Shown here piece after piece: positions 26,144-26,243 of a stretch of DNA of 64,000 nt. The notes under the pieces are model-generated. The model did no database searches. It was not told the DNA's origin and saw nothing but the letters and a program-made list of their open reading frames with translations. Origin of the DNA: Escherichia phage Ec_Makalu_002. Numbering within the stretch: position 1 is the first letter of the stretch; each line of letters begins with the position of its first letter. The position numbers were made by a program, and so were the translations under genes. The stretch is taken from sequence record MN709127.1, one strand, 5' to 3'.

Positions 26144-26184
26144 AATTTGATTCTCCGTTTAAGAAAGTGTGTTTCGTTTCGATG

Positions 26185-26220
26185 GGTGTATTATGCTATA
26201 GGCCGGATCTGGTGTCAACA
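26185..26220 (-). promoter_or_regulatory. sigma70-like early promoter plus conserved leader
   Basis: Reverse complement: TTGACA-ccagatccggcctatag-CATAAT ... catcgaaacgaaacacac ... GGAGAATCAAA-ATG. Confidence 0.55.
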
Positions 26221-26243
26221 ACTTTTTTAAAAAAATTTTAGGC

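Follow-up and report, generated by a model that had tools for sequence, protein, structure and literature searches.

The repeated intergenic element represented by positions 26141-26272 raises the question of what kind of unit punctuates the early region of Escherichia phage Ec_Makalu_002 (MN709127.1), and how far its parts correspond to a preliminary description of the 64,000-nucleotide stretch analysed here (the window), in which each copy joined a terminator hairpin, a promoter, a conserved leader and a common ribosome-binding site (RBS). The window phage belongs to Krischvirus (RB49/phi1-type T4-like coliphages), with 94-99% identity to many GenBank genomes, including Ec_Makalu_003, Phi1, RB49, JSE and GEC-3S. 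With a probability of about 0.9, we identify the repeated module as the PeSL (promoter-early stem-loop), the composite regulatory cassette by which, in T4-like phages of the RB49/phi1 type, the hyperplastic early regions are punctuated; it was named by Arbiol, Comeau, Kutateladze, Adamia and Krisch in 2010 (PMC2839356) and extended by Comeau et al. 2014 (PMC4122927). Little is new in this respect. The 2010 work, on phages 95% identical to this one, had already given the element its name, its copy numbers, functional tests and a proposed part as recombination linker, and the promoters are annotated in public genome records; the module being published as PeSL, its detection here is a correct rediscovery and not a novelty. 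Added here are a position-by-position anatomy of the cassette with its selection profile, and a concrete, if modest, candidate link suggested by sequence between the invariant RBS of the cassette and the phage RegB nuclease.

Anatomy and identity of the repeated module

Searching with an nhmmer profile made from the sites of the preliminary description recovered all 11 (E-values of 1e-21 to 3e-10), every one of which carries the module, and raised the count to 17 copies. All but one of these lie on the minus strand, between 0.9 and 28.3 kb; the remaining copy is at 42.5 kb on the plus strand. The six copies beyond the original 11 have -35 boxes starting at 20085, 6811, 10036, 5901 and 4666 (minus strand) and at 42504 (plus strand). 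The focal copy and its parts, the remaining copies and one related promoter are as follows.

26141-26272, minus strand: focal module (PeSL), opening a 61-aa ORF (25958-26143, DUF7421)
26272-26251, minus strand: focal terminator hairpin AAGCCACTC-TTCG-GAGTGGCTT, with the T-tract 26250-26247 next to it
about 26240-26222, minus strand: focal UP-like A/T tract
26218-26190, minus strand: focal promoter, -35 TTGACA (26218-26213), 17-bp spacer, -10 CATAAT (26195-26190)
26183, minus strand: focal predicted start, an A in CAT context
26183-26141, minus strand: focal leader AUCGAAACGAAACACACUUUCUUAAAC (26183-26157), RBS 11-mer GGAGAATCAAA (26156-26146), ATG (26143-26141)
28144-28254, minus strand: module; upstream intrinsic terminator 28254-28232, -35 at 28214, CATAAT, predicted start 28179, full leader, GGAGAATCAAA at 28159-28149, ATG 28146
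27699-27787, minus strand: module; -35 at 27762, TAAGAT, hairpin GGGGGTAGTAAGATACCCCC over the -10 box (27747-27728), short leader, GGAGAATCAAA, ATG 27701
25889-25974, minus strand: module; -35 at 25949, TACAAT, hairpin GGGGAGGATAACTCCCC between -35 and -10, short leader, GGAGAATCAAA, ATG 25891
25173-25271, minus strand: module; -35 at 25246, CATAAT, hairpin GGGTGTAT-AGCATA-ATACACCC over the -10 box, predicted start 25211, full leader, RBS GGAGTATCAAA, ATG 25175
20023-20110, minus strand: extra copy; -35 at 20085, TAATAT, hairpin GGGGGTAGTAATATACCCCC, leader AUCGAAACAACAAC, GGAGTATTAAA, ATG 20025; drives a 111-aa ORF, then regB
19175-19265, minus strand: weaker atypical early promoter upstream of vs.1, TTGACT-17-TATTAT, at 19240, GGAGAAATTAATG
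15381-15480, minus strand: module; upstream intrinsic terminator 15480-15455, -35 at 15441, CATAAT, short leader, GGAGAATCAAA, ATG 15383
14126-14223, minus strand: module; -35 at 14198, CATAAT, weak hairpin, predicted start 14163, leader AUCGAAACGAGAUACAC..., GGAGAATCAAA, ATG 14128
12966-13063, minus strand: module; upstream terminator 13063-13042, -35 at 13025, 16-bp spacer, TATAAT, short leader, GGAGAATCAAA, ATG 12968
10640-10738, minus strand: module; -35 at 10713, TATACT, hairpin GGGGATCGCCGATCCCC between -35 and -10, full leader (1 mismatch), GGAGAATCAAA, ATG 10642
9971-10061, minus strand: extra copy; -35 at 10036, TATAAT, hairpin over -10, type-2 RBS GAGGATTATATTATG
6749-6836, minus strand: extra copy; -35 at 6811, TAAAAT, hairpin GGGAGTAGTAAAATACTCCC, GGAGAATCAAC, ATG 6751
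5839-5926, minus strand: extra copy; -35 at 5901, TAAGAT, hairpin over -10, type-2 RBS; drives a frd.2/goF-like gene
4606-4691, minus strand: extra copy; -35 at 4666, 16-bp spacer, TATAAT, hairpin over -10, type-2 RBS
2098-2200, minus strand: module; upstream terminator 2200-2179, -35 at 2160, TATAAT, leader AUCGAAAACAAAGA, RBS GAGGACAACAT, not of the GGAG type
917-1015, minus strand: module; -35 TTGACG at 990, hairpin GGGGATCGCGAGATCCCC between -35 and -10 (TATACT), GGAGAATCAAA, ATG 919
42463-42563, plus strand: sole copy on the plus strand, within the block of baseplate/late genes; terminator 42463-42490, -35 at 42504, TATAAT, leader AUCUAAACAAC, GGAGGATAAAT, ATG 42561; the ORF behind it has 85 aa (phrog_16603, unknown function)

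From 5' to 3', the module opens with a UP-like tract rich in A/T or with the T-tract of a terminator (one or the other lies upstream of the -35 box in every copy), followed by GT(T/G)TTGACA, 16-17 bp, (T/C)AtAAT, a C-rich discriminator of 6 nt, the CAT of the start, an A/C-rich, G-poor leader of 9-27 nt, GGAGAATCAAA and ATG. By eye, the focal tract agrees at 14 of 15 specified positions with the UP-element consensus of Estrem et al. 1998. The -35 box is TTGACA in 16 of the 17 copies, the exception being the TTGACG at 990, the spacer measures 16-17 bp, and the -10 box agrees with TATAAT at four to six of six positions. TATAAT and CATAAT are present as the preliminary description had it, and its (C/T)ATAAT pattern was too narrow for the TATACT, TACAAT, TAAGAT, TAAAAT and TAATAT also found. 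TTGACA-N16-18-YAYAAT is matched 12 times where chance would give 0.28, with 11 of the matches on the minus strand. All copies end in a GGAG- or GAGG-type Shine-Dalgarno sequence followed by ATG, 23-40 nt past the predicted start. An independent consensus scan placed the modules among the best promoter-like sites, and four of its best terminator-like hairpins directly upstream of modules. Sixteen of the 17 modules lie in the minus-strand early region, and the genes downstream encode mostly hypothetical proteins or DUFs.

The modules combine all the parts by which PeSLs are defined, that is, a sigma70 promoter, an AT-rich tract, a Gn-loop-Cn hairpin, a 3' end with Shine-Dalgarno sequence and ATG, and an ORFan-proximal position. 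The GEC-3S record annotates promoters and terminators at the orthologous sites, and the modules were found at the same positions, 88-100% identical, in GEC-3S, Phi1, RB49, JSE, pEJ01, LF73P4 and G2494, with 7-13 module-matching places per genome across Krischvirus. The apparent divergence of the module at 15441 in Phi1 (55% in an anchor-based comparison) was rejected as an artefact, the module being conserved there and the ORF084.1 insertion sitting farther upstream. The modules also fit the published RB49 early-promoter consensus, which was checked against 5' end mapping and shows T/C at -12, a UP-like region rich in A and a C-rich stretch at positions -3 to -1 (PMC1524935). Together with the nearly invariant hexamers, these observations uphold the promoter/leader/RBS cassette of the preliminary description, and from orthology and sequence we infer that the window modules act as early promoters. 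Arbiol et al. counted 52 PeSLs in phi1 and 51 in RB49 and demonstrated promoter and terminator activity through lacZ fusions, the activities being those of PeSL193/192, PeSL206/205 and PeSL211/210 only, all outside the region of this window (PMC2839356). The window modules and the RB49/phi1 PeSLs share genus, orthologous positions, parts, location in ORFan-proximal hyperplastic regions and the proposed cassette-shuffling role, with no essential difference between them, although the link with indels is weak in the window. The promoter at 19240, which lacks the typical hairpin, was missed by the module profile and is annotated in GEC-3S.

Like the early promoters of T4 and T5, which are strong sigma70 promoters with UP-like A-tracts, the modules would be promoters of the immediate-early, host RNA polymerase-dependent class; they are A/T-rich upstream and present in many copies before small non-essential genes. 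They differ from the T4 early promoters in carrying the E. coli consensus TTGACA instead of GTTTAC at -35 (PMC1524935, PMC4122927) and in being fused to a G/C hairpin, which is not general in T4.

Hairpins, leader and selection profile

A hairpin was predicted in each of the 17 copies (-7 to -18 kcal/mol, weak at 14198), lying upstream of the -35 box in six, between the boxes in three and over the -10 box in eight, the same three placements that were reported for PeSLs (PMC2839356). The preliminary description had assigned a terminator to every module; a canonical upstream terminator with GC stem and T-tract occurs in only six of the 17 copies, or five of its 11 sites. The other 11 hairpins are embedded in the promoter without a T-tract, so that a terminator role for these is doubtful. 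Among paralogs the arms co-vary (GGGAGTA/TACTCCC, GGGGGTA/TACCCCC, GGGTGTAT/ATACACCC, GCGGTTAT/ATAGCCGC), and among orthologs the stems remain paired through G-U pairs or double changes.

The conserved leader turned out to be over-generalised, as the full version CATCGAAACGAAACAC (up to three mismatches) was found at five sites only; these five copies agree at 13 or more of 16 leader positions, and the other leaders are shorter or different A/C-rich versions starting with CATC. The 5' untranslated regions of 23-40 nt are A/C-rich and devoid of conserved structure, with a leader composition of 51% A, 23% C and 9% G. A riboswitch- or attenuator-type leader was rejected, the leaders being 9-27 nt long, G-poor and without conserved structure. 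Scanning the whole window for tRNAs and, at gathering threshold, for Rfam families returned nothing, and permissive Rfam scans of two non-coding stretches beside modules gave sub-threshold hits only, which were taken as chance.

The RBS 11-mer GGAGAATCAAA (up to one mismatch) occurs 12 times against 2.0 expected; 11 of these matches are on the minus strand, all right behind module promoters, and the exact 11-mer is confined to such positions. The site at 2160 has a different RBS, GAGGACAACAT, and that at 25246 has GGAGTATCAAA. The second RBS type, GAGGATTATATTATG, previously reported about nine times on the plus strand, is real (six exact matches and ten with up to two mismatches, against 0.22 expected); its matches are all on the minus strand, three of them behind module promoters. 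The shared post-transcriptional control that the preliminary description derived from the conserved leader is a plausible possibility; it is the RBS 11-mer, with its similarity to the RegB/S1 target, that has the look of a control site.

Comparison of eight genomes revealed 1% variable sites in both the -35 and the -10 box, 2.8% in the RBS 11-mer, 5.3% in the leader, 10.6% in the upstream A/T tract and 14.5% in the spacer. The boxes (p = 6e-8), the RBS 11-mer (p = 3e-5) and the leader (p = 9e-4) are all less variable than the spacer, and the leader also less than the upstream tract (p = 0.018). Coding DNA has the same 5.3% of variable sites among orthologs as the leader, which accordingly gives no sign of special constraint beyond its composition.

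These profiles bear on two other readings of the cassette parts. The leader (AUCGAAACGAAACACAC...) might itself be an operator that a phage RNA-binding protein or small RNA recognises specifically to control these messages, which is the preliminary idea in its literal form, as its low variability relative to spacer and upstream tract and the positions common to the five full copies would suggest; however, 12 of the 17 modules do without the full version, neither a conserved secondary structure nor a matching Rfam family was found, the variability equals that of coding DNA, and the A-rich, G-poor composition is what any unstructured leader would be expected to have, all of which makes this reading very improbable. 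The G/C inverted repeats, for their part, could be DNA-level protein-binding sites serving as early shut-off operators or recombination-protein targets. They lie where operators classically do, within the spacer or across the -10 box, the embedded repeats have no U-tracts, and a DNA-binding or recombination protein as their partner was already speculated upon by Arbiol et al. (PMC2839356); moreover, no motA ortholog was found in RB49, which is also not one of the phages listed with AsiA (PMC1524935). Yet the arms differ between copies while staying complementary, which points to selection on pairing rather than to a single recognised sequence, their position relative to the -35 box varies by 10 nt, and no candidate binding protein was identified, so that we regard such binding sites as highly unlikely.

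Cassette expression and a candidate link to RegB

Under the PeSL reading, unmodified host sigma70 RNA polymerase would bind the near-consensus promoter (UP-like A/T tract, TTGACA, 17 bp, TATAAT-like box) right after infection and would start transcription at the A of the conserved CAT, 7 nt beyond the -10 box. Such early use was shown for RB49/phi1 PeSLs and RB49 early transcripts (PMC2839356, PMC1524935). The short (23-40 nt), A/C-rich, G-poor and presumably unstructured leader would end in GGAGAAUCAAA-AUG, and leader and RBS together would ensure that the small ORF at the head of each cassette is strongly translated. The G/C-rich hairpin, whether an upstream terminator or embedded in the promoter, would stop or attenuate read-through from the cassette upstream, and each cassette would thereby be transcriptionally insulated. 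Insulating terminator activity was shown for one PeSL hairpin in phi1/RB49 (PMC2839356); insulation by the embedded hairpins without a U-tract is doubtful.

The window also encodes a possible trans-acting factor for the RBS:

19263-19685, minus strand: regB, 140 aa (PF10715, E = 1.5e-48)

The translation initiation region of this gene is GGAUAAUAAAAUG, and its own site is GGAUAAUAAAA, as described for RB49, where it is the only site of these reported as cleaved (PMC3014915). The RBS 11-mer matches the T4 RegB/S1 consensus GGAGRAYARAA at 10 of 11 positions. GGAG is present in 14 of 18 first-gene RBSs (RegB/S1 targets have GGA and, in position 4, G or U), no C occupies the forbidden positions 5, 6 and 9, and AAUCAAA, directly 3' of GGAG, agrees with RAYARAA at six of seven positions, the C at position 8 replacing one of the three best-conserved A's. 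An A at position 8 is strongly preferred by T4 RegB/S1 (Durand et al. 2006, PMC1702504; Uzan and Miller 2010, PMC3014915). The 11-mer lies where early genes have their translation initiation regions, and its predicted accessibility is only moderate (mean unpaired probability 0.32-0.78).

The modules resemble T4 RegB/S1 targets, which are single-stranded and lie in early-gene Shine-Dalgarno regions (PMC1702504, PMC3014915), in having an 11-nt GGAG plus A-rich element in early-gene translation initiation regions and a regB gene in the same genome. They differ in the C at position 8 and in being putative cleavage sites, and RB49 RegB is divergent from T4 RegB. RegB is a candidate for acting in trans on the GGAG-type RBS with which the modules end. 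We tentatively propose that the 3' end of the PeSL, besides being a strong RBS, is a Krischvirus RegB/S1 cleavage site, GG/AGAAUCAAA, so that each cassette would carry its own on and off switch, and that genes with the type-2 RBS would escape RegB. The consensus sigma70 promoter may act as the on switch, and the off switch may be a nuclease cut that inactivates the RBS of the first gene, through which RegB could silence all first-gene messages together. Under this proposal GAGGAUUAUAUU may stay uncut, and the second RBS type GAGGAUUAUAUUAUG, which has no GGAG, might mark genes that escape RegB and might comprise RegA-type targets. Since RB49 has no MotA ortholog found and is not listed for AsiA, shut-off by RegB could replace an AsiA/MotA-type early shut-off and, if the link is true, would explain the joint switch-off of dozens of ORFan cassettes in this lineage. 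The PeSL papers discuss neither the leader nor the RBS as a nuclease target, the words 'RegB' and 'leader' being absent from the texts of PMC2839356 and PMC4122927.

Similarity of the copies and proposed recombination

The preliminary description had also regarded the repeats as recombination hotspots that shuffle small-gene cassettes, which coincides with the published PeSL hypothesis: PCR detected recombination mini-circles in phi1/RB49, and the sequenced junctions map within PeSLs (PMC2839356). Since the cassettes are 60-80% identical over 70-100 bp, they could occasionally serve as homologous crossover points at which ORFan cassettes would be inserted, deleted or swapped. Three sub-families can be told apart among the module paralogs, 67-79 nt long and 60-82% identical. 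Exact runs common to paralogs measure only about 20-27 nt, which is short for efficient homologous exchange. As in morons and integron cassettes, an analogy drawn by Arbiol et al. (PMC2839356), a small gene travels with its own promoter and terminator; unlike integron cassettes, the modules have neither an integrase nor an attC-type site, and PeSL mobility was proposed to proceed via general homologous recombination at the regulatory sequence itself.

The copies could alternatively be alike through convergent design, each being independently selected as a maximal sigma70 promoter with translation start, and recombination would then be incidental. This would agree with the concentration of ortholog conservation at the -35 box, the -10 box and the Shine-Dalgarno sequence while spacers and upstream tracts drift, with the shortness of the exact runs between paralogs, and with the lack of breakpoint enrichment at modules in the window. 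Of about ten indels or replacements relative to seven relatives, just one breaks within a module, the chance expectation being 1.6, and most indels trace to homing endonuclease genes. We nevertheless consider convergence unlikely, as members of a sub-family also have non-functional stretches in common (for example CGAAACGAAACACACTTTCTTAA in the leader, CATGAAACGGGGGTAGTAA in the spacer and TTTTTCGTTTTTAGGTG in the terminator tail), one cassette junction falls within a module, and the mini-circle junctions of Arbiol et al. do so too.

Relatives have numerous variant alleles whose state is that of another module. They are mostly single-base toggles within a small state space, which makes gene conversion between paralogous modules indistinguishable from parallel mutation, and conversion was therefore set aside as evidence.

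At least five of the other indel events are homing endonuclease genes. As a caution, in this 30-kb stretch compared with seven relatives, homing endonuclease genes and not PeSL crossovers explain most gene-content differences, and the window backs the hotspot proposal weakly. The sole module at an indel breakpoint, where the one PeSL crossover of the window is seen, is PeSL 13025: this phage has the gp38 adhesin cassette (13070-13849), which LF73P4 and G2494 lack, the cassette junction lies inside this PeSL, and the empty site in both relatives holds a PeSL of a different sub-class.

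Layout and copies of the early-region module

Across its entire length, the region around the focal copy, called module 26218 after the start of its -35 box, as are all copies, is 96-98% identical to many Escherichia phages, among them Ec_Makalu_003, Phi1 and GEC-3S, and the first 25 kb of the window exhibited 94-99% identity to the same set, RB49 and JSE included. These relatives are T4-type myoviruses of the genus Krischvirus. Bases 1 to ~31,600 harbor minus-strand genes (nrdG, nrdD, frd.2, 49, nrdC, dam, 38, rI, tk, vs, regB, dmd, 57B, 57A, 1, 3 and 2) along with dozens of small hypothetical ORFs, and plus-strand baseplate genes start at ~31.7 kb.

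The repeated module reported in the preliminary description was confirmed, with corrections. All 11 sites listed there share one layout on the minus strand and can be aligned over ~100 nt. The pattern TTGACA-N16-18-YAYAAT was found 12 times (0.28 expected), and the RBS GGAGAATCAAA, with at most one mismatch, also 12 times (2.0 expected), its minus-strand matches lying in 11 of 11 cases directly behind a module promoter. A profile HMM trained on these 11 sites regained them all (E 1e-21 to 3e-10) and revealed six further copies, and an independent consensus scan ranked the modules among the best promoter-like sites, with four of its top terminator-like hairpins immediately preceding modules. 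A second RBS type, GAGGATTATATTATG, previously assigned to the plus strand, is likewise real, with six exact copies and ten at up to two mismatches (0.22 expected), all on the minus strand.

Components of the focal module (minus strand)
26272-26251: terminator hairpin
26250-26247: T-tract
about 26240-26222: A/T tract
26218-26213: -35 box, TTGACA, followed by a 17-bp spacer
26195-26190: -10 box, CATAAT
26189-26184: discriminator, ACACCC
26183: predicted start, the A of CAT
26183-26157: leader
26156-26146: RBS, GGAGAATCAAA
26143-26141: ATG

Copies added by the profile HMM, and related elements
20085, 6811, 10036, 5901, 4666 (-35 starts), minus: module copies
42504 (-35 start), plus: module copy
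19240: weaker, atypical promoter ahead of vs.1, annotated in GEC-3S
4606, 5839, 6462, 8844, 9971, 12665, 18202, 24435, 29675, 31577, minus: second RBS type, GAGGATTATATTATG

By eye, the focal A/T tract agrees with 14 of the 15 specified positions of the UP-element consensus (Estrem et al. 1998). For 15 of 17 copies the predicted start falls within a CAT; 5'UTRs are 23-40 nt long, and the leader is composed of 51% A, 23% C, 17% U and 9% G, against 30, 17, 30 and 23% strand-wide. No conserved leader structure was predicted across the copies. A terminator upstream of every module had been proposed, which held in canonical form (GC stem, then T-tract) for 6 of 17, the hairpin of the other 11 lying inside the promoter. 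Similarly, the leader described as conserved at all sites is present in full, as CATCGAAACGAAACAC, at five, with only shorter A/C-rich versions elsewhere, and four modules carry a GAGG-type RBS in place of GGAG.

Position of the hairpin in the modules
2160, 13025, 15441, 26218, 28214, 42504: canonical upstream terminator
990, 10713, 25949 (n=3): between -35 and -10
4666, 5901, 6811, 10036, 14198, 20085, 25246, 27762 (n=8): over the -10 box and discriminator, no T-tract after

Identity with the promoter-early stem-loop and conservation among relatives

What Arbiol et al. 2010 (PMC2839356) named the PeSL (promoter-early stem-loop) is this same module. They defined it in phi1 and RB49 as a repeated motif that carries the sigma70 consensus of E. 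coli, is AT-rich ahead of -35, has a stem-loop of the form Gn-loop-Cn in five alternative positions (most commonly between the boxes or over -10), and closes at its 3' end with an SD and start codon. The same study counted 52 PeSLs in phi1 and 51 in RB49, mainly in front of ORFans in hyperplastic regions. In lacZ fusions they showed strong promoter activity; most clones had acquired mutations in the -35 or -10 box, about 13,000 Miller units were reached by one wild-type clone, while one stem-loop exhibited terminator activity comparable to rrnB T1 (PMC2839356). Comeau et al. 2014 extended the idea to T4/PST and KVP40/nt-1 (PMC4122927), and the RB49 early-promoter consensus of Nolan et al. 2006 has T/C at -12, a C-rich stretch from -3 to -1 and a UP-like A tract (PMC1524935). 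In the GEC-3S record, the orthologous sites bear annotated promoters, -35/-10 signals and terminators, and a single module used as query found 7-13 matching places in every Krischvirus genome. Given this agreement with the definition, consensus and GEC-3S annotation, the finding is a correct rediscovery of a known module. Its nature as a promoter and RBS cassette is backed by its sequence and orthology, and by experiments published for near-identical phages.

Each module was compared with its ortholog in seven relatives (GEC-3S, Phi1, RB49, LF73P4, JSE, pEJ01 and G2494).

Variable sites by module part
-35 box: 1%
-10 box: 1%
RBS 11-mer: 2.8%
leader: 5.3%
first 60 nt of the ORF: 5.3%
discriminator and start: 9%
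upstream A/T tract: 10.6%
-35/-10 spacer: 14.5%
bases from 11-mer to ATG: 18%

Relative to the spacer, variability was lower in the -35/-10 hexamers (p = 6e-8), the RBS 11-mer (p = 3e-5) and the leader (p = 9e-4), although conservation of the leader does not exceed that of coding DNA. Working promoters and ribosome sites would be expected to show such a profile. Hairpin stems remain paired inside the variable spacers, with a U-G and a U-A pair swapped among orthologs of module 10036 and changes to G-U in modules 990 and 6811; among paralogs, the arms co-vary (GGGAGTA/TACTCCC, GGGGGTA/TACCCCC, GGGTGTAT/ATACACCC, GCGGTTAT/ATAGCCGC). Such co-variation favors selection acting on pairing rather than on a single sequence recognized by a protein.

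T4-like phages of Cronobacter, Klebsiella and Enterobacter, with genomes of roughly 178 kb, also contain a 35-nt piece comprising the -10 box and leader start, in most cases as a single copy with 89-94% identity, suggesting that the same promoter and leader design reaches beyond Krischvirus.

Ribosome-binding sites and RegB

The conserved leader had been read as a hint of shared post-transcriptional control. Little marks the leader itself as an operator, whereas the RBS does show such signs. T4 RegB cleaves early mRNAs within Shine-Dalgarno regions, midway through GGAG, and its target with ribosomal protein S1 is the 11-nt single-stranded GG*AGRAYARAA (PMC1702504, PMC3014915). The module RBS GGAGAAUCAAA agrees with this target at 10 of 11 positions, the mismatch being a C at position 8 in place of one of the better-conserved A's, and has no C at the disfavored positions 5, 6 and 9. 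RegB itself is encoded in the window (19263-19685; PF10715, E 1.5e-48), with GGAUAAUAAAAUG as its translation initiation region; RB49 is the sole regB case with GGAU, and the tested regB sites were cleaved in vivo (PMC3014915). By rough gene calls, a GGAG-type RBS precedes 14 of 18 first genes behind a module against 18 of 44 internal early genes (p = 0.012). From the resemblance, the presence of RegB and the first-gene excess of GGAG, we propose that the cassette RBS doubles as a putative RegB/S1 site, which would switch off translation of the first gene. A strong, unstructured, A-rich RBS would look identical without any nuclease. Shared control through RegB acting on the RBS, and not through the leader, is plausible; neither PeSL paper mentions RegB (PMC2839356, PMC4122927).

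The second RBS type (GAGGAUUAUAUUAUG) lacks GGAG and is A+U-rich across the AUG, resembling T4 RegA operators such as that of gene 44 (AAAUUAUGAUU); reading it as RegA-operator-like is speculation by analogy. It stands in front of frd.2, tk.4, gene 1 (dNMP kinase), gene 2 and others.

Gene-content differences and conserved non-coding stretches

PeSLs have been proposed as crossover points for cassette shuffling, with mini-circles detected by PCR and sequence (PMC2839356), and the preliminary description likewise took the repeats for likely recombination hotspots. Window 1-33,000 was aligned to the seven relatives with blastn, the alignments were chained and every inter-block gap was listed, which revealed about ten distinct indel or replacement events. 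At least five are homing endonuclease genes or similar inserts, and three are ORFan replacements or deletions with junctions 475-1580 nt from the nearest modules.

Indel and replacement events
3189: homing endonuclease type, inside nrdD in JSE
7605: homing endonuclease type, between nrdC and dam
21256: homing endonuclease type
22444: homing endonuclease type
31594-32730: homing endonuclease type, 1135-bp insert in the window itself
30760: insert in Phi1 and JSE
11542/12252-12455: ORFan event, the 12252-12455 version flanked by a 27-nt direct repeat (family D15)
17563-17757: ORFan event
24452-24653: ORFan event, downstream junction adjoining a type-2 RBS
12992-13907: gp38 adhesin cassette, absent in LF73P4 and G2494

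Only the gp38 event touches a module. The empty site in LF73P4 and G2494 is occupied by a PeSL from a different sub-class (TTGACACGGGGAGAAATCCCCGTATAAT); homology with the window restarts within the module, at CATACCAACTAAGGAGAATCAAA. With modules covering 8.6% of the compared region, the chance expectation is that 1.6 of 10 events touch a module; PeSL shuffling is thus illustrated once, without statistical support in this sample, and the published hotspot reading is only weakly visible here. Paralogous modules share 60-82% identity over 67-79 nt, with exact runs of just about 20-27 nt, and many of the variant alleles seen in relatives are identical to the state of a different module. Gene conversion between modules was considered and set aside, since the variants are mostly single-base toggles, inseparable from parallel mutation.

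The gp38 tail-fibre adhesin gene (13070-13849, minus) forms an isolated cassette in the early hyperplastic region, bracketed by terminators (hairpins 13870-13885 and 13063-13042); here a gene for host range behaves as a cassette bounded by PeSLs. Most early-region differences in gene content are homing endonuclease genes, free-standing or intron-borne, present in relatives and not in the window. The 1135-bp insert sits between genes 2 and 4 in just 2 of 58 Krischvirus records (PHB13 and Cognac); its plus-strand ORF 31706-32728 encodes a 340-aa protein that matches homing endonuclease family phrog_655 (E 6e-15) and no Pfam family. The 27-nt direct repeat (12226-12252 and 12455-12481) is a translation initiation region (ACAGAAGAGTGAGGAATA..ATGAA), and the 202-bp segment between its copies, absent from RB49, LF73P4, JSE and pEJ01, appears to reflect deletion or duplication between the short RBS-region repeats of paralogous ORFs in tandem.

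Two conserved non-coding stretches adjoin modules on the minus strand. About 180 nt at 26245-26425, from ORF 26420-26638 to the focal terminator, form four hairpins in addition to the terminator when folded (MFE -65.3 kcal/mol and z -3.5, with 0 of 200 shuffles equally stable) and are 97-100% identical in 58 Krischvirus records, above their neighbors; no Rfam family matched this stretch, a candidate phage small RNA. The second covers about 260 nt at 15455-15715 (fold z -2.4) and has the module 15441 terminator at its end; in Phi1 it holds an extra insert annotated as ORF084.1.
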